A DNA stretch of 26,015 bases from Burkholderiales bacterium (GTDB lineage Bacteria; Pseudomonadota; Gammaproteobacteria; Burkholderiales; Burkholderiaceae_C). Below, one piece after another: positions 6,656-19,658 of this stretch; within the stretch, counting starts at the first letter, position 1, and every line of letters begins with the position of its first letter. The notes under the pieces were generated by a model. It was not told the origin of the DNA and made no database searches. It saw only the letters and a program-made list of their open reading frames with translations. The position numbers were made by a program, and so were the translations under genes. The stretch lies in NCBI GenBank assembly GCA_011390055.1, contig JAABTC010000001.1, forward strand, positions 1 through 26,015, in the 5' to 3' direction.

Positions 6656-6748
6656 AGGGGTCTCCTTGATCAAAACATGTTAGTCCACAACGTGAGTTCG
6701 GACATTCAGATGACTCCGTACTCCATTTGGGTAGTCAGGGCGTACGCC

Positions 6749-7882
6749 CTAGTTCTTGGCACCATCGACCAGCCACTGGGCGATGGCCTTGGCGTCGGCT
6801 TCGCCGAGCGTCTGTGGTGGCATCGGAATCTGGCCCCAGACACCCGCGCTGCCATTCTTGATCTTGCCGGCAAGGTAGCCCACGCCATCGGCCTGCCCAG
6901 CGTACTTCTTGGCGACCTCGCGAAAGCCCGGCCCGACGATCTTGTTGTCGATGCCGTGGCACGCTACGCAGGTGTATTTTTGGGTCAACGCGATGGCCGC
7001 AGCGTTGCTGTTGCTGGCTTCGGGCTTGGCTGCGGGAGCAGGCGCCGGCGCAGCCGATGGCTTGGGCGCTGCGCCTTTCGGGGCCGCTGCAGGCGCCGGT
7101 TTGCTGGTGTCGGCGCCGTGCTGCGCGCCGACCGCCCGGTTCTGCTCCGACAGGTTGCCATGCGCGTCCCGCGCGAAGTCGGGCAGGAACGACGCCAGCG
7201 TCGGTACCGGTCCGCAGTCCTTCATGCACGCCACGGCCTTGACGTCGGGTGGGCGCTGGCCCATGCCGGCACCCGGCCAGAGCGCGTGCTCGGTCGTCAT
7301 GCCATGGCGGTTGGGCAGCAGCTTTTGCACCTCGGCGATGTTCTTGTCGGACAGCACGAAGTTGTCCGGCAGCACCTCGCCCATGTTGAGGATGTACGCG
7401 GTGACGGCATACACCTCCTCGGTGCTCAACGACTTGGGCTGCGTCCACGGCATCGCGCGGTTGATGTAGTCCCACAGCGTCGACACCGTGGACAGCTTCA
7501 TCAAGGTCGTGCGGCCAGGGAACGACGGATCGTTCAAGCGCGCCACGCGGCCGGTCTTCACGTCGTCCTTCGTGGTGCCGCCGACCATCGGGCTGAAGAC
7601 TTCGTTGCTCTCGCCGAAGATGCCGTGACAGGACGAGCACTTGCTCTCCCAGACCTCCATGCCCTTGGCCACCGAACCGGAGCCCTTGGGCAGACCCTTG
7701 AAGTCGGGCCGCACGTCGATGTCCCAGGACTTGATCTCCTTGGCGGTGGCCGGCCGGCCGACGCTCGGATAGGCCGCGGTCTGCGCCTGAGCAACGCCGG
7801 CCATCAAAATCAGCATCGCGGCGAATGCGATGGGGCCGACCCAGACGGCCCAGGCGTCGATGCGATCACGAGAGCTGGACAT
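6749..7882 (-). CDS. soxD: SoxD diheme cytochrome c subunit of sulfane dehydrogenase (377 aa)
   Basis: WDIDVRPD, heme motifs CSSCH and CVACH, WDYINRAMP, an Ala/Pro/Lys linker before a c551-like C-terminal domain, and overlap with the soxC stop. Confidence 0.95.
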   Translation of the reverse strand: MSSSRDRIDAWAVWVGPIAFAAMLILMAGVAQAQTAAYPSVGRPATAKEIKSWDIDVRPDFKGLPKGSGSVAKGMEVWESKCSSCHGIFGESNEVFSPMVGGTTKDDVKTGRVARLNDPSFPGRTTLMKLSTVSTLWDYINRAMPWTQPKSLSTEEVYAVTAYILNMGEVLPDNFVLSDKNIAEVQKLLPNRHGMTTEHALWPGAGMGQRPPDVKAVACMKDCGPVPTLASFLPDFARDAHGNLSEQNRAVGAQHGADTSKPAPAAAPKGAAPKPSAAPAPAPAAKPEASNSNAAAIALTQKYTCVACHGIDNKIVGPGFREVAKKYAGQADGVGYLAGKIKNGSAGVWGQIPMPPQTLGEADAKAIAQWLVDGAKN

Positions 7883-9248
7883 TCTTTACCTCGCCACTCT
7901 CCTGAACCAGCCAGGTCTGCACCGAGTGGTTGTGATAGATCGAACGCGAGCCGCGCACGGCACGCAACTGTTTGTAGGTCGGCTGCACATAGCCGGTTTC
8001 GTCGGTCGCGCGGCTCTGCACCAGCGCCGGCTTGCCGTCCCACACCCAATCGAGGTTGAAACGCGTCAGGCACTTGGACATCACCGGGCCTTCGAGCCGC
8101 GCGGCGCGCCAGTTGCGCCCCCCGTCGACCGACACATCCACCTTCTTGACTTTGCCGCGGCCCGACCAGGCCAGGCCGCTGATGTTGTAGAAGCCCTGGT
8201 CGAGCAGCACCTGGCCGCCCGAGGGCGTGGTCACCACGCTCTTGCACTCCTGAGTGCTCGTGTACTGGCGGTGCAGCCCGCCCGGCATCAGGTCGATGTA
8301 GTGGACGGCCTCGTCCTTGGCGCCGTAGGGCTTGTCGCCGACCTCGATGCGGCGCAGGTACTTGACCCAACTCACGCCCTGCACCCCAGGAACCACGAGG
8401 CGCAGGGGATAGCCGTTCTCCGGGCGCAGCATCTCGCCGTTCTGCCCGTAGGCGACGAGCACCTCGCCGCTCTCGACCAACTCCATCGGCAGCGTACGCG
8501 TCATCGACGAGCCGTCGGCACCCTCACCCAGCACATAGCGCGCGCGTTTGTAGTCGACGCCCGCCATGTCGAGCAGGATCTTCAGCGGCACGCCGGTGAA
8601 CTCGCTGCAACTGAGCATGCCGTGGCTGTACTGGCAGGTCGGCACGGCCACGTTGCCCCACTCCATGCCGGTGTTGGCGCCGCATTCGATGAAGTGAAAG
8701 CGACTCACCGACGGCAGCCGCATCAGCTCGTCCATCGTGAAGACCATCGGCGTCTTCATGATCTTGTCGTCCGAGCCGTTGAGCATCAAGCGGTGCTTGG
8801 ACGGATCGATGTCCCACCAACCCTGGTGATGGCGCTCGAAGTGCAGGCCGCTCGGTGTGATGATGCCGAACAGCGACTGCAGCGGCGCGAACGACACCGA
8901 GGACTGCGTGGTTTGCGTCAGACCGGGGCTGCGCCGGCGCTGGACGTTGGCTTCGTACTTCGACGGCTTGCCGTAGCCGTCGGTGGCCACCGGCTGGCCG
9001 AGGCCCTTGCTGTGCTCGGGCAACTCGAGGATGTTGGGGTCGCCGCCGCTGGGTGGCACCGGGTTGGCCGCAGCCAGGGCGACCGGCGCAGCCACTGCCG
9101 CCCCCGCCGCCGCGAAGGCAGTGCGAATGAAGTCGCGCCGCCCACGCTTGGCTTCAGCGAAGACCTGGCGCACGCCCGCCGGATCGAGGAAGCTCTCCGG
9201 CGCCTTGATCAGGCGGCCGGCCCCTACGGCCTTGTTGTACGAGTCCAA
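7866..9248 (-). CDS. soxC: SoxC molybdopterin sulfane dehydrogenase subunit (about 460 aa)
   Basis: Tat motif GRRDFI, GIITPSGLHFERHH, Moco-ligand FIECGAN, EQ-less QNGEMLRPENGYPLRLVVPG and ATDETGYVQP. Start inferred at TTG 9248 behind AAGGAA, which removes the overlap with the regulator. Confidence 0.93.
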   Translation of the reverse strand: MDSYNKAVGAGRLIKAPESFLDPAGVRQVFAEAKRGRRDFIRTAFAAAGAAVAAPVALAAANPVPPSGGDPNILELPEHSKGLGQPVATDGYGKPSKYEANVQRRRSPGLTQTTQSSVSFAPLQSLFGIITPSGLHFERHHQGWWDIDPSKHRLMLNGSDDKIMKTPMVFTMDELMRLPSVSRFHFIECGANTGMEWGNVAVPTCQYSHGMLSCSEFTGVPLKILLDMAGVDYKRARYVLGEGADGSSMTRTLPMELVESGEVLVAYGQNGEMLRPENGYPLRLVVPGVQGVSWVKYLRRIEVGDKPYGAKDEAVHYIDLMPGGLHRQYTSTQECKSVVTTPSGGQVLLDQGFYNISGLAWSGRGKVKKVDVSVDGGRNWRAARLEGPVMSKCLTRFNLDWVWDGKPALVQSRATDETGYVQPTYKQLRAVRGSRSIYHNHSVQTWLVQESGEVKNVQLS

Positions 9249-9621: not shown

Positions 9622-9711
9622 CGGCTTATCGAACTACACGGCACTCGGGGAAACCCGGATCCCCGGCGAAGCGCAGACCGCCAGCGAGGCTGGTGTGCCA
9701 CAGCACCGCCT

Positions 9712-10158
9712 TCAGGGCTTCAGCGTCCCGCGGCGGCGGTGCGGTTGCCAAGCCGCGATGTCGCGCACGATCGCTTCCCAGGGCAGTTGGGTCAGGCTGC
9801 CGTAGCGCTCTTGGGTGGCCACGACCATGGCATGCACGTCGGCTCGTGCATCGCCCAGCGCTCGCTGCAGGCCCACCAGACCGCCGCAGTGCAAACGCAG
9901 CGCCTGCGCGTGAATCATCGGACGCCCGGGGCTGGACAGATGCAGCGCAAAGCGCGCCCGCTCGTGCATGAGCGCCGCCAGCGTGCCGCAATTGGTGCGC
10001 GCCACGACCGAGCGGCACTCGACGATCTCGCGTTCGCCGATGCTGCGCCGGGCCGCCAGCTCGCAAGTCGCGGCCCGGGCCAGCAAGGCCTTGGCAAAGA
10101 CACAGATCGACCCGCTCTCGCAGCATGCGCTCGGTGCGGTTGGATCGTGATCGCTCAT
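9712..10158 (-). CDS. Cys-rich hypothetical protein (about 148 aa, 7 Cys)
   Basis: Co-oriented ORF in an operon-like arrangement. Start moved to ATG 10158, 11 nt after the previous stop. Motifs CVF, ECRS, TNCG, HCGGL. Confidence 0.75.
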   Translation of the reverse strand: MSDHDPTAPSACCESGSICVFAKALLARAATCELAARRSIGEREIVECRSVVARTNCGTLAALMHERARFALHLSSPGRPMIHAQALRLHCGGLVGLQRALGDARADVHAMVVATQERYGSLTQLPWEAIVRDIAAWQPHRRRGTLKP

Positions 10159-10169
10159 CGCACGCGGAT

Positions 10170-10388
10170 TCAGTCGTCGCCGGTCGGACCCGCTTCTCGA
10201 ACCTGGCACAGCAAATCTTCGGCCAGCTGCTGGTTGTCGGCAAACATCACTTTGACCTTCGCGTCCGCGGCCACCGACTGCGACGACCGAAGGGACTTGG
10301 CATGGGTCGACGCTTCCTTGAAGGCAATGAACTCGGCCAGCTTCTCGATCTGCGCGAAAGGCCGCACGCTGAAGACGAAGTAGGGCAT
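10170..10388 (-). CDS. Small hypothetical protein (72 aa)
   Basis: Fills the gap exactly between two co-oriented genes (10- and 11-nt spacers) and has a protein-like composition (MPYFVF...KVKVMFADN). Confidence 0.75.
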   Translation of the reverse strand: MPYFVFSVRPFAQIEKLAEFIAFKEASTHAKSLRSSQSVAADAKVKVMFADNQQLAEDLLCQVREAGPTGDD

Positions 10389-10398
10389 CGTGGTTCGC

Positions 10399-10728
10399 TC
10401 AAAGGTAGTGTTTGGTCAGCCGGCGGCGACCGGGCACGGCCTTCTGGATGACGACGCCATGAACTGCCGCCAGATCGGGCAGCGGCTGTTCGGCATAGGC
10501 CGGGTTGAGCGCGTGCAGACGCCAGCCATCGCCCACCTGCACCAGCTGGCGAAAGGTCCACTCACCGGCCACCTGGGCCAGAACGAAGCAGCCGGGGCGC
10601 AGCGCACCGTCGGGCTCGATGATGATGATCTCGCCGGCGTTGAATTCGGGCGCCATGCTGTCGCCGAGCACGCGCAGCGCGAAGGACTCGCCGCCGCTGC
10701 AGCCGGGGTCGTCGTTGAGCTCGCTCAC
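10399..10728 (-). CDS. Stand-alone S24/LexA-like peptidase-fold protein lacking the catalytic Lys (109 aa)
   Basis: FALRVLGDSMAPEF, GCFVLA, WTFRQL and LHALNPAY. GTG 10728 overlaps the upstream TGA (GTGA). The long N-terminal part of the track ORF 10399-11502 is spurious. Confidence 0.85.
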   Translation of the reverse strand: MSELNDDPGCSGGESFALRVLGDSMAPEFNAGEIIIIEPDGALRPGCFVLAQVAGEWTFRQLVQVGDGWRLHALNPAYAEQPLPDLAAVHGVVIQKAVPGRRRLTKHYL

Positions 10729-12212
10729 AGGATCTCCGACCTCATCTGCGCCGCCGGCACGCCCGCCGCCAGCAACGCGGCACCGAGCCCTTCGACGAAC
10801 GCTTGAGGGCCGGCGAGGTAGAAGTCGCAATCGATGTCGAACTGGTCGGCCCGGATCGCAGCGGCGACCTGTGCAGCGCCCGCCGCCGGATCGAGTTCGC
10901 TGAACGCCGCGTACTCGAAGGCATCCAGCGCCTCGGACCAGGCGCGGCACTGGTTGGCCTGGAAGTGACCGTCGCTGCGCGTGGCCAGCCAGTACAGCGA
11001 CAGAGACGGCGACGCGTCGAGCGACAGCGCGTGCTCGATCAGGCTCTTGATCGGCGCGAAGCCGGTGTCGCAGGCCGCGAACACCAGCGGCCGGTTGCTG
11101 TCGGCGAGCACGAACTCGCCGATGGGGCCCCAAAGGTTGAGCGGGCTTCCGACGGCCAGCAAGCCGTCGAACACCATGCGTGCAAAGGCGCTGGCGCCAT
11201 CGCGCGGGATGTAGAAGTGCAGGTTGCGATCGTCGCACGGGCAACTGGCGATCGGATGCGTGGCTCGGACGTCGTCGCCCGCCGTGGCCGCCGAGCCGGC
11301 GCGGCCGAGCGTGACCGACTGCCCGGCCAGGAACCGCAGGCGGTTGGTGCGCGGGGTCTGCAGGTGCAGCAGCCGCGTGTCGGGTGCGAGCTCCCGCACG
11401 GCGCGCACCGTGGCCACGATCTGCTGCTGCGGGATGTCGGCCGGCCCGCCCGCCTCCAGCGTCTCCAGCGTGAGTTCGCTGCTGGCCGCCGTGTGCGCGC
11501 ACAGCAGCGTGTAGCCCTGCCGCTTCTCGGCCTCCGACAGCGGGTAGTCAAAGGGCATCACCTTGGCAACCTCGCCGGCGATCACGCGCACCTTGCACAT
11601 GCCGCAGCTGCCGTTGCCGCAGCCGTAGTTCAGCGCAAGGCCCGACTTCAGGCCGGCCTGCAGCAGCGTGTCGTGACCCTCGACCGCGAACTGGTGGCCG
11701 CTCGGGCGCAGGGTTACCTGTGCCGCCACGACTTTCAGGATGTCATCCATGACGTCGAGAGGATCGACCGCTTCGGTGGCCAGTGCGCGCGCGAGGCCTT
11801 CGTTCAGTTCTCGCTGCAAGATGCGCAGCGATGCATCGCCGCCCGGCGTCTGCAGCAGCAGCGCGTCGATGCGGTCGCGCAGGCCGATCACCAGGGCGTG
11901 GTAGCGCTGCAGGTGGCGCTGCACGTCGGCCATCTCCTGGCCCTGATGAAACAAGCGCTGGGCCAGCACCTCCTGGCTCGGCAACAGCCGCTCGCGCACG
12001 CGCCGGCCAAACGCATCCTCCTTGATGTGCACGACGCGTTCGAGCATGCCGGACTGCTCGAGCTGCATCTGTGGGTACAGCTCGAGGAGCGCCTGCGTCG
12101 ACACCAGGCCATCTGCGAGCGCGATCTCGCCCGCGCGCACGCGCTGTTGCAGCACGCCGCGCGGCACGCCGACCAGTTGCGCTGCGCGCCAGACGGTTAT
12201 CCATTGGGCCAC
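10725..12212 (-). CDS. Fusion of an HTH-like/coiled-coil N-terminus, a [2Fe-2S] ferredoxin and FNR-like FAD/NAD(P) domains (495 aa)
   Basis: N-terminal ITVWRAAQLVGVPRGVLQQRV (excisionase/MerR-like HTH), CGNGSCGMC...TLLC cluster motif, FLAGQ, IASCPCDD, ACDTGFAPIKS and YLAGP; GTG start. Confidence 0.88.
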   Translation of the reverse strand: MAQWITVWRAAQLVGVPRGVLQQRVRAGEIALADGLVSTQALLELYPQMQLEQSGMLERVVHIKEDAFGRRVRERLLPSQEVLAQRLFHQGQEMADVQRHLQRYHALVIGLRDRIDALLLQTPGGDASLRILQRELNEGLARALATEAVDPLDVMDDILKVVAAQVTLRPSGHQFAVEGHDTLLQAGLKSGLALNYGCGNGSCGMCKVRVIAGEVAKVMPFDYPLSEAEKRQGYTLLCAHTAASSELTLETLEAGGPADIPQQQIVATVRAVRELAPDTRLLHLQTPRTNRLRFLAGQSVTLGRAGSAATAGDDVRATHPIASCPCDDRNLHFYIPRDGASAFARMVFDGLLAVGSPLNLWGPIGEFVLADSNRPLVFAACDTGFAPIKSLIEHALSLDASPSLSLYWLATRSDGHFQANQCRAWSEALDAFEYAAFSELDPAAGAAQVAAAIRADQFDIDCDFYLAGPQAFVEGLGAALLAAGVPAAQMRSEIL

Positions 12213-13111
12213 GGAGCCTCCGTGGTTCGATCCAGGTAGCGCGCCCGATAGAGCAAGCGCGGTTGCGCTGGGTCGTCGGCGAAGGCGTCGCGCGCGTGCA
12301 GCACGTTGTGGGCGACGATGCCCATGCCGGCCTCCAGCCGTACGCGCAGCACGTCGGCGTTGCCGTCGGCCAGGAAGCGCTCGAGGAAGGCGACGGCCTT
12401 CAAGGTGGCGGCATCGTTCTTCCAGAGGATGCTGCGCGTGCGCGCGGTGTAGCGCATGTGCAGCGTGCCGTCGCGCGCATCGACCGAGAATACCGGGCCA
12501 GTTTGGGCGGCACGTGCCACACCGCGCCCATCCTCGCGCGCCGGGATCGTCATCGCGTCGGGCGCCATCAGCGCCCGCAGCCAGCGCGGCGAGGCGTCGC
12601 GCAGCGCGATGTAGGCCAGCTCATGGTCGAGCAGCGAGTTGACGCCGCCGCGGGTGGCCGGCCGCACGCAGTGCAGCACGAAGGCCCGGATGCGCTGTCC
12701 TTGCGGGTGGTAGTAGCCGTCGGTGTGCCAGCCGAGTGGCCGGTCGGTGTACGGGATGTAGCCGCTGCGATCCTGCGTCGCCGGACTTACCGTGATGCTC
12801 GAGACGCCGTCCTCGTCGGCCAGCCAGTTGCCGTCCAGGCGCTGCAGCCCGAGTTGACGCGCCACCGCCAGCGCAACGCCCTTGTGTTGCACGCCGCAGC
12901 GGTTGCGATAAATCACCATGTTCCAGCGCGCACAGGCCTGCAGCAGCGCAACGCGCTCGCCGCGGGTCAAGGCGGCGGCATCGGCGACCTCGACGACCAG
13001 GTCTTCGGCGCGACGGGCGCGGTTCGCCAGCTTGCGGGCACGCCAGGCAAAATAGCCTGCATCGTCGACGAGGTCGAACGGCGACAGCGCGGGATGCAGG
13101 ACAGCGCTCAT
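12197..13111 (-). CDS. TauD/TfdA-family Fe(II)/2-oxoglutarate dioxygenase (304 aa)
   Basis: WHTDG (HxD), LHCVRPA.GG.N, NVLHAR (distal His) and RLLYRAR. Confidence 0.9.
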   Translation of the reverse strand: MSAVLHPALSPFDLVDDAGYFAWRARKLANRARRAEDLVVEVADAAALTRGERVALLQACARWNMVIYRNRCGVQHKGVALAVARQLGLQRLDGNWLADEDGVSSITVSPATQDRSGYIPYTDRPLGWHTDGYYHPQGQRIRAFVLHCVRPATRGGVNSLLDHELAYIALRDASPRWLRALMAPDAMTIPAREDGRGVARAAQTGPVFSVDARDGTLHMRYTARTRSILWKNDAATLKAVAFLERFLADGNADVLRVRLEAGMGIVAHNVLHARDAFADDPAQPRLLYRARYLDRTTEAPWPNG

Positions 13112-13115
13112 GGTG

Positions 13116-13760
13116 TCAGTCGCCGCTCATCGACGTTCGCCGGGACGCGCGTGGCTTGTCGGACAACAGATCGAGGATCGCGCTGCGCACGATGTCGACC
13201 GCTTCAGGGGCTTCGATGGCCATCACCTGATCGAGGACCCAGCGCCGGTCGTGTGGCGGCAGGGTCGGCTCGAGTCGGCTGCCGAGGTAGCGCACGAAAC
13301 CGAAGTCCGGCATGAAGGCCTCATCGGTCGTTGCGCTGGCCGGCTCGCCACCGAACTCGGCATAGTGCGGCGACAGTTCGTTGACCAGGTCGATGAAGCT
13401 GTCCTGGTAGCGCGCACCGTCGGCGCGCGGGCCGAGCAAGTCGCCCTCGTTGCCGGCCAGGGTGTCGGCGCAGCGAACGACCAAAGCCGTGGTGAAGCGG
13501 ATGCGGGTTGAAGCGTCCATCTTCGCGTAAGCGGTGCGGTCAACCACCGCGATCAGGAAGACCAGCACCTCGCGCAGGAAGTCGAAGTAATTGCCGCCCG
13601 CCTCGATGTCGAACTTCGCTCCGCGCATGCGCTTCAACGTGTTGTGCGCCACGCGCCAGACGATGAACGCCATCGCGCTGGCCTGCTGCTCGGCGCTCTT
13701 GGGCTCACTGGCCTTGAACCAGTGGCTCTTGATCCGCATGCGCGGCGGGACGAGGCTCAT
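13116..13760 (-). CDS. Hypothetical protein (214 aa)
   Basis: ATG overlaps the upstream TGA (TGATG) and the stop lies 4 nt before the TauD-family start. Globular, largely helical-looking sequence. Confidence 0.8.
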   Translation of the reverse strand: MSLVPPRMRIKSHWFKASEPKSAEQQASAMAFIVWRVAHNTLKRMRGAKFDIEAGGNYFDFLREVLVFLIAVVDRTAYAKMDASTRIRFTTALVVRCADTLAGNEGDLLGPRADGARYQDSFIDLVNELSPHYAEFGGEPASATTDEAFMPDFGFVRYLGSRLEPTLPPHDRRWVLDQVMAIEAPEAVDIVRSAILDLLSDKPRASRRTSMSGD

Positions 13761-14089
13761 CAGTACCCACCCTTGCCCAAAGGCTGCGGCAGGCCGGCGA
13801 CCTTGCAGCCCTGTTTGGCGGGGCCCACTGGAAACAGGTCGTAGAGCGCCTTGCTGTCGCAGCCCGGCAGCACCTCGGCCAGCCCCTTGAGCATGTTGCG
13901 GAAGTTCGGCGTGTGGCCGTGTTCGCGAAATTCGTCGCGCAGATAGGCGACGACCTTCCAGTGGTCTTCGGTGAGCTCGATCTGCTCGGCCGCGGCGATC
14001 ACCTTCACCACCTCGTCGCTGAAGTCGGCCTCGACCAGGAAGCCCTGCTCGTCGGTGTCGAGCTCGCTGCCGTTGACGACGTACCCCAT
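13760..14089 (-). CDS. DsrC/TusE-family paralogue lacking the C-terminal Cys (RspA-type; 109 aa)
   Basis: DTDEQGFL, ELTEDHWKVV.YLR and LYDLFP.GPAKQGCKVAGLP align with DsrC at 18557, but it ends PLGKGGY instead of PTGCV. Start moved to ATG 14089 behind GGGAGA. Confidence 0.92.
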   Translation of the reverse strand: MGYVVNGSELDTDEQGFLVEADFSDEVVKVIAAAEQIELTEDHWKVVAYLRDEFREHGHTPNFRNMLKGLAEVLPGCDSKALYDLFPVGPAKQGCKVAGLPQPLGKGGY

Positions 14090-14109
14090 GTTGTCTCCCT
14101 TGCAGAATG

Positions 14110-14724
14110 TCAGGCGCCGACGGCCGCGGCCGACTTGTGGGGCACGAACAGGCCGCAACCCAGGCGGCGGTGCCGACCCAGGCCGGACTCGAGCACGCGC
14201 AGCGAATCGCCCGGCGCCAAGCCGTCGAGCATCAGGCTGTAGCCGGTCAGCGTTTGGCCGCCGTTGTCGATCATTTGGCGACGTCCGCAGATGGGCCGGC
14301 ACGGCAGGCTCGCGGCCTCGAGCTCGTGACCGATCGTCGCCAGGAACGCCAGCTCGTCGTCATCGTCGGTCGCCACCAGGTGCGCATAGAGCGTGCTGTG
14401 CGGCAGCAGCTCACGCACCTGGCTGCGGTCGCCCACTTGCAGCGCATGGCCGTCGAGATCGAGGCGAGCGCCTCGCAAGCACTGCAGATCGCCGATCCGT
14501 TCGCGCGCGACGCGCAGCGTCAGCCGCGCGCGCTGCGACAGCAATGCCGTCGGGCCATGCCCCGCCACGGCATTGATGCGGTGCACACCGGCATGGGCCG
14601 GGTCCGCGAGCCAGGGCAGGTGGCGCTCCAACACTGCGGCCAGCGCGCGGCGGTGGTCGCGCGGAACAGCATCGCCGCGCAACGCGAAGGTGACATCGAC
14701 CCGGGACGAAGCGCTCGACCGCAT
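14110..14724 (-). CDS. cas6: Orphan Cas6-family RAMP protein resembling type I-MYXAN Cas6/Cmx6 (204 aa)
   Basis: N-terminal VDVTFAL.G..VP.DH, ARLTLRV, GYSLML.GL...DS..V, and C-terminal Gly-rich loop GLGRHRRLGCGLFVP (GhGxxxxxGhG). Confidence 0.82.
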   Translation of the reverse strand: MRSSASSRVDVTFALRGDAVPRDHRRALAAVLERHLPWLADPAHAGVHRINAVAGHGPTALLSQRARLTLRVARERIGDLQCLRGARLDLDGHALQVGDRSQVRELLPHSTLYAHLVATDDDDELAFLATIGHELEAASLPCRPICGRRQMIDNGGQTLTGYSLMLDGLAPGDSLRVLESGLGRHRRLGCGLFVPHKSAAAVGA

Positions 14725-14728
14725 CTGG

Positions 14729-14950
14729 TCAGGCCTCGGGTCGGGGCTGACCGTCGGCCCAGCGCAGGAGCGCCTCGCCCCACTCGCGCGCCGTCTGCGG
14801 GTCGATGTCGAAGACGGTGAAGCGGCTCTTCTCTCGGATGCGCGTTCGCAGCAGGCTCATGCCACCGGCTTCATGGTCGAGTTGCTGCAGCTCGATTTCC
14901 TGACCGCCCAGGGGCGCGCGCAACTTGGCAAGGCTGGTCGTGCGCGGCAT
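14729..14950 (-). CDS. Small hypothetical protein (73 aa)
   Basis: GAGGA RBS before ATG 14950 (MPRTTSLAKL...). Stop lies 4 nt before the cas6 start. Confidence 0.75.
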   Translation of the reverse strand: MPRTTSLAKLRAPLGGQEIELQQLDHEAGGMSLLRTRIREKSRFTVFDIDPQTAREWGEALLRWADGQPRPEA

Positions 14951-15093
14951 TCGTTTCCTCCGGGTGCCGCATTGAGCGCGGGCGCCCGGCAAGCGTCCAT
15001 ACCCGGTACGGGTGAGCGTCGCCTACGCCATCCGGGTAGTGCCGCAGGCATCGATCCGGTCTATCGTCGCCGCAGCACACAGGAGCGCCCACC
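14951..15093. promoter_or_regulatory. Divergent intergenic region between the accessory block and dsrA
   Basis: The only gap between the two divergent arms, with RBSs at both ends and repeated ACCCGG/CCGGGT words. No clear sigma70 or sigma54 boxes found. Confidence 0.6.
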
Positions 15094-16389
15094 ATGGCCA
15101 AGAAGCAGCACCCGACGCCGATGCTCGACGAGCTGGAAAGCGGCCCCTGGCCCAGCTTCGTCACCGGCTTGAAGCGGCTGGCCGACGACAAGGACTACAT
15201 GGTTGACCTGATGGGTCAGCTCGAGACCTCCTACCGCACGCGCAAAGGCTATTGGAAGGGCGGCACGGTCGGCGTCTTCGGCTACGGCGGCGGCGTGATC
15301 CCGCGCTTCACCGAGCTGAAGGACGAGAAAGGCGCGCCGGTTTTCCCCGACGCCGCCGAGTTCCACACCCTGCGCGTGCAGCCGCCCGCCGGCATGCATT
15401 ACGACACCCAGGTCCTGCGCAAGATGGCCGACATCTGGGAAGAGCACGGCTCGGGCCTGATCGCCTTCCACGGCCAGTCGGGCGACATCATGTTCCAGGG
15501 GGCGAAGACCAACAAAGTCCAGGACGCCTTCGATGCGCTGAACGAACTCGGCTTCGACCTGGGTGGCGCCGGCCCCGCGGTGCGCACCTCGATGAGCTGC
15601 GTCGGCGCCGCACGCTGCGAGCAGAGCTGCTACGACGAATCGCGCGCGCACCGCCAGGTGATCAACAACTTCCTCGACGACATTCACCGCCCAGCCCTGC
15701 CCTACAAGTTCAAGTTCAAGTTTTCGGGGTGCCCGAACGACTGCATGAACTCGATCCAGCGCTCCGACATGGCCGTCATCGGCACCTGGCGCGACAACAT
15801 GCGCACCGACGAGGAACTGGCACGCAAGTGGTTCGACAAGCACGGCATGGACGAGCTGGTCAACGACGTGGTCGCACGTTGCCCGACCAAGACCATCCTG
15901 CTCAAGGAGATCAAGAACGTCGCTGCGGGCGACACCATCTCCAGCGTCAAGGTCAGCGACACGCACGCACTCGAGATCGACAACAGCAACTGCGTGCGCT
16001 GCATGCACTGCGTCAACGTCATGACGGGCGCGCTGGCCAAGGGCACGGACACCGGCGCGTCGATCCTGATCGGCGGTAAGCGCACGCTCAAGATCGGCGA
16101 CCTGATGGGCACCGTGATCGTGCCCTTCATGCCGCTGAAGACCGACGAGGACTACGACGCGCTGGTCGAACTTGGGCAGAAGGTGATCGACTTCTTCGCC
16201 GAGAACGCACTCGAGCACGAGCGCACCGGCGAAATGATCGAGCGCATCGGCTTGGTCAATTTCCTTGAGGGCATCGGCGTCGACATCGACGCCAACATGG
16301 TGGCCACGCCGCGTACCAATCCCTATGTGCGCACCGACGGCTGGGACGACGACGTCGCCCGGATCAACGCCAAGAAACAAGCCGCCTGA
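15094..16389 (+). CDS. dsrA: Dissimilatory sulfite reductase alpha subunit, reverse type (431 aa)
   Basis: TPMLDELESGPWPSFV, FHTLRVQPPAG, siroheme-[4Fe-4S] motif CVGAARC...CPNDC, YKFKFKFSG and CVRCMHC. Confidence 0.98.
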   Translation: MAKKQHPTPMLDELESGPWPSFVTGLKRLADDKDYMVDLMGQLETSYRTRKGYWKGGTVGVFGYGGGVIPRFTELKDEKGAPVFPDAAEFHTLRVQPPAGMHYDTQVLRKMADIWEEHGSGLIAFHGQSGDIMFQGAKTNKVQDAFDALNELGFDLGGAGPAVRTSMSCVGAARCEQSCYDESRAHRQVINNFLDDIHRPALPYKFKFKFSGCPNDCMNSIQRSDMAVIGTWRDNMRTDEELARKWFDKHGMDELVNDVVARCPTKTILLKEIKNVAAGDTISSVKVSDTHALEIDNSNCVRCMHCVNVMTGALAKGTDTGASILIGGKRTLKIGDLMGTVIVPFMPLKTDEDYDALVELGQKVIDFFAENALEHERTGEMIERIGLVNFLEGIGVDIDANMVATPRTNPYVRTDGWDDDVARINAKKQAA

Positions 16390-16404: not shown

Positions 16405-17472
16405 ATGGCTCAACGCGCCCCCATCGAAAGCGGCTGCCCCGATCCCAAGCCGTACATGCATCCGACGATGCTGAAGAACTACGGCAACTGGCGCTACCAC
16501 GACCGGCCGCGCCCCGGGGTGCTGCACCATGTCTCGCACACTGGCGACGAGATCTGGACCGTGCGCGCCGGCACCCAGCGCCAGATGGACGTCTACACGA
16601 TCCGCAAGCTGTGCGACATCGCCGACACCTTTGCCGACGGCCACGTGCGCTTCACGATCCGCTCGAACATCGAGTTCATGGTGGCCGACCAGAACAAGGT
16701 GGCGCCACTGATCGAATCGCTCACCAGCAACGGCTTTCCGGTCGGCGGCACCGGCAACTCGGTGTCGATGATCGCGCACACCCAGGGCTGGCTGCACTGC
16801 GACATTCCAGGCACCGACGCCTCGGGCGCCGTGAAGGCGCTGATGGACGACCTGTACGAGGAGTTCATCAAGGAGGACATGCCCAACCGCGTGCACCTGT
16901 CGACCTCCTGCTGCGAGATCAACTGCGGCGGCCAGGCCGACATCGCGATCATCGTGCAGCACACCAAGCCGCCGAAGATCAACCACGATCTGGTGGCCAA
17001 CGTCTGCGAGCGCCCGGCCGTGGTCGCGCGCTGCCCGGTGGCCGCCATCCGCCCCGCACTCGTCAACGGCAAGCCCTCGCTCGAGATCGACGAAAAAAAG
17101 TGCATGTGCTGCGGCGCCTGCTACCCGCCCTGCCCGCCGATGCAGATCAACGACCCGGAGTACACCAAGCTGGCGATCTGGGTCGGCGGCAAGAACTCGA
17201 ATGCGCGCAGCAAGCCGACCTTCATGAAGATGGTGGCCTCGGGCATCCCCAACAACCCGCCGCGCTGGCCCGAGGTGTCGGCCATCGTCAAGAAGATCCT
17301 CTACACCTACAAGGAAGATGCACGGTCGTGGGAGCGCGTCTCCGATTGGGTCGAGCGCATCGGCTGGCCGCGCTTCTTCGAGAAGTGCGACCTGCCCTTC
17401 ACCAAGTACCTGATCGACGACTGGCGCGGCTCACGGGCCAGCCTCAACGCCTCGACGCACATCCGCTTCTGA
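16405..17472 (+). CDS. dsrB: Dissimilatory sulfite reductase beta subunit (355 aa)
   Basis: HTQGWLHC, SCCEINCG, CMCCGAC, GIPNNPPRWPE and C-terminal NASTHIRF. Confidence 0.98.
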   Translation: MAQRAPIESGCPDPKPYMHPTMLKNYGNWRYHDRPRPGVLHHVSHTGDEIWTVRAGTQRQMDVYTIRKLCDIADTFADGHVRFTIRSNIEFMVADQNKVAPLIESLTSNGFPVGGTGNSVSMIAHTQGWLHCDIPGTDASGAVKALMDDLYEEFIKEDMPNRVHLSTSCCEINCGGQADIAIIVQHTKPPKINHDLVANVCERPAVVARCPVAAIRPALVNGKPSLEIDEKKCMCCGACYPPCPPMQINDPEYTKLAIWVGGKNSNARSKPTFMKMVASGIPNNPPRWPEVSAIVKKILYTYKEDARSWERVSDWVERIGWPRFFEKCDLPFTKYLIDDWRGSRASLNASTHIRF

Positions 17473-18926: not shown

Positions 18927-19658
18927 ATGAACGCACTCGCGATCGCCTACGCCGCGCTCTTCTACGTCGCGACGGCCGTGCTCGTCGTTGGCGTGGCACT
19001 CAAGATCCGGCGTTATGCCGGCGTGCCGGCGCCGCTGAAGATCCCCACCACACCCGCGCCGACCAGCACGGGCGGCGTGGCGCTGCGGCTGACGCGCGAG
19101 GTGGTCTTCTTCGAGAGCCTGTTCAAGGCCAGCAAATGGACCTGGCTGTTCGGCTGGCTGTTTCACGCTGCGCTGCTGCTGGTGCTGCTGCGCCACCTGC
19201 GCTACTTCCAGCAGCCGGTGTGGGCACCGATCGTCTGGGTGCAGGCCTTCGGCATCTACGCCGGCTTCGCGATGGTCATCGGGCTGGCGGGCCTGTGGGC
19301 ACGCCGCTTCCTGGTCGATCGCGTGCGCTACATCTCCACGCCGTCGGACCATCTGCACCTGGCGCTGCTGCTCGCCATCGGCCTCACGGGCCTGGGCATG
19401 CGCTTTGTCGCCCCGACCGACATCGTCGCCGTCAAGGCCTTCATGCTCGGCCTGATGCGCCTGGACATCCAGCCGCTGCCCGCCGACCCGCTGCTGCTGC
19501 TGCACCTGGCGCTCGTCGCGCTGCTGATGCTGGTCTTCCCGATCAGCAAGTTGATGCACGCGCCAGGCCTGTTCTTCAGCCCGACGCGCAACCAGAGCGA
19601 CAACTCGCGCGAGGTGCGCCACCTGGCGGCCTGGGCCTCGGTGGCCGACAAGCGATAA
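18927..19658 (+). CDS. dsrM: DsrM membrane cytochrome b (243 aa)
   Basis: NarI-like transmembrane protein: APLKIPTTP, FHAALL..LLRHLRY, DRVRYIS and SKLMHAPG. Start moved to ATG 18927. Confidence 0.95.
   Translation: MNALAIAYAALFYVATAVLVVGVALKIRRYAGVPAPLKIPTTPAPTSTGGVALRLTREVVFFESLFKASKWTWLFGWLFHAALLLVLLRHLRYFQQPVWAPIVWVQAFGIYAGFAMVIGLAGLWARRFLVDRVRYISTPSDHLHLALLLAIGLTGLGMRFVAPTDIVAVKAFMLGLMRLDIQPLPADPLLLLHLALVALLMLVFPISKLMHAPGLFFSPTRNQSDNSREVRHLAAWASVADKR

Follow-up and report, generated by a model that had tools for sequence, protein, structure and literature searches.

Transposons are known to have taken over Cas proteins, and occasionally such proteins have been recruited to regulate genes. 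The closest described relatives of the protein reported here are the Cmx6 proteins of type I-B ('I-MYXAN') systems, for example those of Synechocystis PCC 6714 pSYLB and of Gloeothece PCC 7424 plasmids, in which the gene lies in cas6-cas3-cas8-cas7-cas5-cas4/1-cas2 operons beside arrays, and the Cas6 of a type I-B CRISPR-transposon Cascade (PDB 8fcj and 8fcu, chain B). The clade that we describe, by contrast, lies beside dsrAB, with no cas genes or arrays. As for the dsr genes, DsrC of Allochromatium vinosum was reportedly proposed by Grimm et al. in 2010 as a possible DNA-binding regulator, and we know of no Cas6 homologue in that system. The locus studied here resembles the Allochromatium case in encoding a DsrC-fold protein and in carrying conserved palindromic motifs in the dsrA promoter region; it differs in that the DsrC paralogue lacks the terminal cysteine and in that TusA domains are found instead in some lineages.

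One gene of the locus has a name. In sulfur oxidizers that are aerobic or facultative, the tauD-like gene dsrQ stands upstream of dsrA and in divergent orientation to it (Lenk et al. 2012, as cited by Loffler et al. 2020, PMC7596348); this literature speculates on sulfonate cleavage and names the dioxygenase only, and the latter text mentions neither Cas6 nor CRISPR. The window, by which we mean the whole stretch of 26,015 nucleotides analysed, from a Burkholderiales bacterium, contains a TauD-family gene (12197–13111) that matches dsrQ in position and orientation and belongs to the same operon as a gene for Cas6. A literature search turned up no paper on a Cas6 linked to dsr genes. We show here that this Cas6 comes from a large clade that has departed from CRISPR–Cas and is fixed in an accessory operon divergent from dsrAB, the genes for the reverse dissimilatory sulfite reductase.

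Family, fold and conserved residues of the Cas6 protein

The minus-strand reading frame at 14110–14724 encodes an intact Cas6/Cmx6-family protein of 204 amino acids, as a preliminary description of the window had proposed. It matches the Pfam Cas6 profile PF09559 from end to end (178.5 bits against a cut-off of 26.7 bits, E = 1.9e-52; residues 9–198 on profile positions 1–191 of 191) and the NCBIfam profile TIGR02807 cas6_cmx6 ('type I-MYXAN Cas6/Cmx6') at 142.3 bits, above the equivalog cut-off of 98.85 bits; several PADLOC Cas6 models also match. Its only sequence relative in the PDB is 8fcj_B, the Cas6 of the CRISPR-transposon Cascade (E = 3.9e-12). In an AlphaFold2 model built with 137 homologues (pLDDT 96, pTM 0.90), the protein follows the order beta-alpha-beta-beta-alpha-beta twice, giving two tandem ferredoxin-like (RRM/RAMP) domains. 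Foldseek placed 8fcu_B and 8fcj_B at the top (TM 0.86, r.m.s.d. 2.0 Å, at 24% identity), and the remaining PDB matches were all Cas6 enzymes. As modelled, the window protein is a true RAMP/Cas6 fold, in agreement with the earlier assignment.

The C-terminal glycine-rich loop GhGxxxxxGhG reads G181-L-G183-R-H-R-R-L-G189-C190-G191, and the D-H that follows strand 1 is retained as D23-H24; both elements had been picked out from the sequence at the start. In the clade as a whole, R71 is 100% conserved, and G181, G183, R186, G189, G191 and F193 are conserved at 96–100% (loop glycines 98–100%). All of these residues are common to the cas-linked reference proteins, with which the window protein also shares its Pfam/NCBIfam family and the two-RRM fold. 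Retention of the loop and of R71 and R186, which are hallmark nucleic-acid-facing elements of Cas6, argues for a putative nucleic-acid ligand.

Other features set the clade apart. His24, which by analogy with other Cas6 enzymes would be the catalytic histidine, is present in six of six reference Cmx6 proteins but varies across the clade (H 67%, Y 26%, other residues 7%, with N at 3%). Of the 90 loci proven to be dsr-linked, 80 have histidine. At the D-H position, the solved CAST Cas6 carries D-N. The variability of His24 in the clade would count against a conserved nuclease role. The cas-linked references are uniformly basic (pI 8.7–9.6, net charge +2 to +10), whereas the dsr-linked clade has a median pI of 6.9 and a net charge of about 0, with half of its members acidic, a loss of basic charge that would count against generic RNA binding. 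The clade also has conserved residues of its own, absent from the cas-linked references: E124, C146-G147, H48, W38, R65 and H196-K197. Of the four cysteines of the window protein, the clade conserves C146 (83%) and C190 (92%) but not C82 and C142. The idea that the loop cysteine and the three others could make the protein redox-sensitive has lost ground, because C190 is found in five of the six reference Cmx6 proteins as well and is thus ancestral to the family, not a dsr-specific innovation; C146 is the sole clade-specific conserved cysteine.

Among close relatives, Cas6 has a dN/dS of 0.18–0.35, compared with about 0.1 for dsrA. By these values the gene is under purifying selection, yet is among the least constrained and fastest-evolving of the module. 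Its frame is intact in every complete locus. One broken copy was found, in genome G013, and it looks like an assembly error, as the adjoining genes in that locus are broken too.

The accessory operon and its control region

A densely packed minus-strand operon, with Cas6 in second place, diverges from dsrAB and begins at a distance of 143 nt from the ATG of dsrA. The order is DUF6967, Cas6, a DsrC paralogue, a 214-amino-acid protein, the TauD-like DsrQ, an HTH-Fer2-FNR protein, an S24-like protein and a 165-amino-acid protein, followed by soxCD-YZAXB. The divergent neighbours dsrA (15094–16389) and dsrB (16405–17472) are on the plus strand, assigned from their reading frames, and DsrA was used as a marker. 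The distance of 370 nt from the dsrA ATG (15094) to the Cas6 ATG was confirmed, and the DsrC paralogue begins 17 nt past the Cas6 stop.

The first gene (14729–14950, minus strand) encodes a DUF6967 protein (PF22295, 104 bits) of 73 amino acids from a conserved ATG; the open frame extends further, as far as a TTG at 14992. In 79 of 90 loci the DUF6967 stop falls between −8 and +6 nt of a candidate start of Cas6, and in 49 the two genes overlap by 4 nt. From this arrangement DUF6967 is the predicted translationally coupled partner upstream of Cas6. A PDB sequence search with DUF6967 returned no relative, only repeat-protein artefacts, and Atlas gave no lead.

Behind Cas6, the DsrC/TusE-family paralogue (13760–14092, minus strand; PF04358, 112 bits) lacks the penultimate cysteine and ends in ...GKGGY. 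This slot is always occupied by a sulfur-carrier-family protein, usually the Cys-less DsrC, and the family varies by lineage: a double TusA, arranged in tandem and with its CPGP motifs intact, substitutes for it in several lineages (L015, L051, L071, L082 and L122), and in L086 double TusA and Cys-less DsrC stand together. The constant presence of a sulfur-carrier gene points to a sulfur-relay link, in which the carrier would be a sensed input or a direct binding partner. In L122 the substitute, at 8668–9162, is a protein of 164 amino acids with two CPGP motifs.

The next gene (13116–13760, minus strand) encodes a conserved protein of 214 amino acids with no assigned function, syntenic in the 80 fetched loci where the contig reaches. 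It has no Pfam or NCBIfam match. Its AlphaFold2 model (pLDDT 90) is a bundle of seven helices with no PDB fold match at E ≤ 0.001, and we rejected it as a hidden RAMP (Cas5 or Cas7), as it is all-helical and lacks a fold match. In the window it abuts the DsrC paralogue, and in relatives this junction is a hot spot of REP- or MITE-like insertions (L080, 10950–11170; L016, 11500–11920; L002, 11040–11240) that comprise a tandem repeat of 81 nt, a MITE whose inverted arms measure 92 nt, and hairpins of 36 nt. These gaps were discarded as candidate sRNA or array sites: the insertions are lineage-specific and not conserved. The 81-nt tandem in L080 was likewise rejected as an array, its units being near-identical throughout, without spacers.

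The remaining genes are all on the minus strand. The dsrQ of the literature, a TauD-like Fe(II)/2OG dioxygenase gene (PF02668, 68 bits), was found in all fetched loci of sufficient extent except two (L060 and L096). It is followed by a [2Fe-2S] ferredoxin fused to an FNR-like reductase and extended at the N terminus (HTH-Fer2-FNR, 10725–12212; Fer2 53.5 bits, NAD_binding_1, BenC-like), syntenic where the contig reaches; by a stand-alone S24 (LexA/UmuD-like) domain protein (10399–10728; PF00717, 66.7 bits); and by a conserved 165-amino-acid protein with no Pfam match (9712–10209), the last module gene before soxC and syntenic in many loci.

An alignment of 89 intergenic regions revealed three conserved motifs in the divergent control region between DUF6967 and dsrA (14951–15093): CTACCC-N4-GGNNTA (15024–15039), CACCCGTNCCGG..AT(A/G)GACG (about 14994–15016) and CGCGCTCAAT (about 14971–14980). 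The first could form a hairpin of 3–4 bp, but its arms show no covariation across the 89 loci, and C or A can stand in place of the third G without compensation. In a relaxed form the pattern of this motif occurs twice in the window, against 0.01 expected; in its stricter form it has a single occurrence in the 2.29-Mb assembly. The second window copy, TACCC-N4-GGNNTA at 6719–6733 on the minus strand, lies between soxD and soxY. Three relatives (G004, G006 and G340) have few genomic copies of the motif, all within 10–35 kb of dsrA on the same contig, and in G340 the full three-block unit is duplicated at the divergent soxY/dsrE2-yeeE promoter with the same geometry as at dsrA/DUF6967. The unit of three motifs spans about 75 nt (L112, 9714–9790 and about 19440–19518).

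We therefore rejected an RNA hairpin in 14951–15093 as the Cas6 substrate: sequence conservation without covariation, together with recurrence at a second promoter, leads us to read the motifs as DNA elements. They are probably a shared operator-promoter of a sulfur-oxidation regulator and its regulon, for which the HTH-Fer2-FNR protein and the Cys-less DsrC, both encoded in the operon, are candidate regulators. It is possible that a transcribed copy of the motif is bound by Cas6. An Rfam scan of the window gave nothing at the gathering threshold. Just before the second motif copy, a perfect GGGCGTACGCCC palindrome (6735–6760, minus strand) starts from within the soxD stop codon; it may be a terminator or a processing hairpin between soxD and soxY.

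In metatranscriptome contigs matching a relative's locus, dsrA is covered at summed depths in the thousands, and DUF6967 and Cas6 are covered by only two near-identical contigs, at a depth of about 5, from one activated-sludge run. This coverage is compatible with low, regulator-like expression of Cas6 and DUF6967, and is weak evidence of expression, since contigs of an RNA library can stem from DNA.

Distribution, phylogeny and independence from CRISPR

A k-mer periodicity scan of the window's own assembly (2.29 Mb including the window, 62% complete) found no CRISPR array, and no Cas1 was found in this 62%-complete assembly; at that completeness, the argument that the gene is an orphan rests on relatives. 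The one repeat match, on contig C111, was rejected as an array: at about 350–620, three tandem 87-nt copies carry a REP-like TCCTGAGGTATCGAAGG / CCTTCGATACCTCAGG hairpin.

Among 41 related genomes, all DsrA-positive ones have Cas6, with one more Cas6 on a 1.9-kb contig, and Cas1 is distributed independently of Cas6. Cas1 and Cas2 are both absent from two complete carriers in which Cas6 adjoins dsrA (G340, a single contig of 5.4 Mb, and G037), and no Cas3 scored over the cut-off in G037 or in four same-genus carriers (G004, G006, G010 and G014). Some carriers do have cas1 elsewhere in the genome (G002, G017, G320 and G362).

Scanning one genome per species with a narrower alignment as query, as the broad alignment was too divergent, we found at least 567 species genomes that encode a relative with the C-terminal motif of the clade. 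The best 80 of these loci all share the order dsrBA and, divergently, DUF6967-Cas6-DsrC'-214aa-DsrQ (80/80), DsrC' being the DsrC paralogue. They are labelled betaproteobacterial, save two that are labelled only Proteobacteria or Pseudomonadota and one labelled Bacillota. Cultured carriers represented among the loci include Curvibacter sp. PAE-UM, Rubrivivax albus ICH-3, Caenimonas terrae KACC 13365 and Piscinibacter sp. MQ-18. The k-mer periodicity scan detected no CRISPR-like array within 10 kb at any of the 80, and no cas genes lie beside Cas6 in them, its neighbours being the same non-cas genes of the dsr module.

Further dsr-linked placements behind DUF6967 were found at the G340, G320, G362 and G037 loci and on three metagenome contigs, and distant members (34–38% identity, on metagenome contigs and in other families) also stand back to back with dsrAB. 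One distant dsr-linked member (L105, 7078–9091; 34% identity) is followed by a DsrC-family gene; proteins of 63 and 237 amino acids without a Pfam match precede its Cas6, in place of a recognizable DUF6967. An even sample of 400 Pseudomonadota genomes contained the family in four, all four with an oxidative-type DsrA and three of them with Cas6 adjacent to it. In the fourth (L111, contig C11 of G102, 9646–10317), a solo Cas6 of the same clade lies 600 kb from dsrA without DUF6967; it is flanked by a thioredoxin-like gene on one side and by rnc-era-recO on the other, and an IS3-type transposase is close by.

In cas-linked Cmx6 systems, the repeats adopt the hairpin AUGCC-GNAA-GGCGU. A search for this type of repeat hairpin in five carrier genomes gave matches no more often than a control pattern did, and those listed were scattered, not periodic.

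A maximum-likelihood tree of 240 sequences included 90 loci, 144 cluster representatives, five cyanobacterial-plasmid Cmx6 proteins and P0270, a reference with a Cas5-like neighbour. The six reference sequences split from the other 234 with an SH-aLRT of 99. Proven dsr-linked loci occur in every major subclade of the 234-sequence side, on which the genomic context was checked for a minority of the 144 representatives. Without an independent outgroup in the tree, we take the direction of change from the CRISPR context being the more widely distributed one. Among the six references, the one from Gloeobacter (L118) has no cas neighbour within its 1.5-kb flanks. This annotated Cas6/Cmx6 of 263 amino acids, on Gloeobacter morelensis plasmid pGMOR1 (1474–2265), is flanked by hypothetical genes and a PAPS-reductase-family gene and may represent another non-canonical Cmx6 context.

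The preliminary description had called the gene an orphan in a sulfur-oxidation operon, with no array or cas neighbours, and had proposed exaptation. Both points have held, and the homologues proved to be dsr-linked and separate from cas-linked Cmx6 in the tree. For the putative job that it had suggested, binding or processing of dsr/sox mRNA, the evidence is mixed: the glycine-rich loop and R71/R186 are retained, but His24 is replaced in one third of the clade, the basic charge is lost, and no covarying hairpin was found in 14951–15093. That the clade is orphan and dsr-dedicated, by exaptation, is well supported. It is very unlikely that Cas6 acts on a distant array, because its presence tracks DsrA and not Cas1, and complete carriers lack cas1 and cas2.

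Possible roles and competing explanations

What the protein does is a more evenly balanced matter. We give about an even chance to a role in which the clade would still recognize a nucleic acid, most likely RNA, or another anionic ligand of the sulfur-oxidation regulon. On this proposal, Cas6 would be co-produced with its 73-amino-acid DUF6967 partner at a low, regulator-like level; its glycine-rich loop and the Arg71/Arg186 surface would recognize a specific nucleic acid (most likely RNA) or other anionic ligand; and the protein would link the state of the adjoining sulfur-carrier-type protein to Dsr/Sox expression or maturation. Cleavage by the window protein, in which D23-H24 is kept, is possible, and cleavage is probably not a conserved function of the clade. 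A more specific version is speculative and on balance unlikely: the whole clade would have been taken over as an RNA-binding housekeeping subunit, and Cas6 would join DUF6967 and either the Cys-less DsrC or a double TusA in a ribonucleoprotein switch that responds to the sulfur state and that controls dsr/sox transcripts or processes them. If that is true, Cas6 would be the first Cas protein dedicated to energy metabolism and not to defence or transposition. A credible competitor, though one that we think somewhat improbable, is that the Cas6 fold persists only as a scaffold without RNA binding, and that the protein would serve the sulfur-carrier protein and DUF6967 as an adaptor, chaperone or small-ligand binder. 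The fall in median pI to 6.9 from 8.7–9.6, the replacement of His24 in one third of the clade and the clade-specific residues listed above would all suit such a scaffold, as would the rank of Cas6 among the fastest-evolving module genes and the sulfur-carrier gene that always stands behind it, though its family differs by lineage. It fits poorly with the glycine-rich loop, R71 and R186 being kept at 96–100%, and with His24 being kept in 80 of 90 proven dsr-linked loci.

Two explanations would leave the protein within CRISPR–Cas, or as what remains of it. An ordinary crRNA-processing Cas6 could serve an array elsewhere in the genome, and some observations leave room for this: the window's genome is 62% complete, arrays assemble poorly in MAGs, and some carriers have cas1 elsewhere. 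We nevertheless consider it highly improbable, given that Cas6 follows DsrA and not Cas1, that the complete genomes G340 and G037 have neither cas1 nor cas2, that all 80 loci keep one and the same synteny with dsrAB, that the clade stands apart from cas-linked Cmx6, and that matches to the Cmx6-type repeat hairpin are no more frequent than a control pattern, with those listed being scattered. That Cas6 is a decaying, functionless remnant of a lost CRISPR–Cas locus might seem to suit a gene that evolves faster than its neighbours, but this reading has next to no chance of being correct: it is refuted by conservation and purifying selection, seen in frames that are intact in complete loci, a dN/dS of 0.18–0.35, the relatives bearing the C-terminal motif in at least 567 species genomes and the conserved coupling to DUF6967, and the one broken copy, in G013, looks like an assembly error.

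The integration of a large, vertically stable clade of Cas6 proteins into a locus of core energy metabolism would amount to exaptation of a new kind. The clade also draws attention to an undescribed accessory operon of the reverse Dsr pathway, in which dsrQ is the sole named gene, in abundant sulfur oxidizers of freshwater, wastewater and sediment. At present all genome annotation pipelines label such genes 'type I-MYXAN CRISPR-associated Cas6' and so wrongly imply CRISPR in CRISPR-free genomes. If members of the clade still bind a specific RNA, they would provide a compact and naturally orthogonal RNA-binding module.
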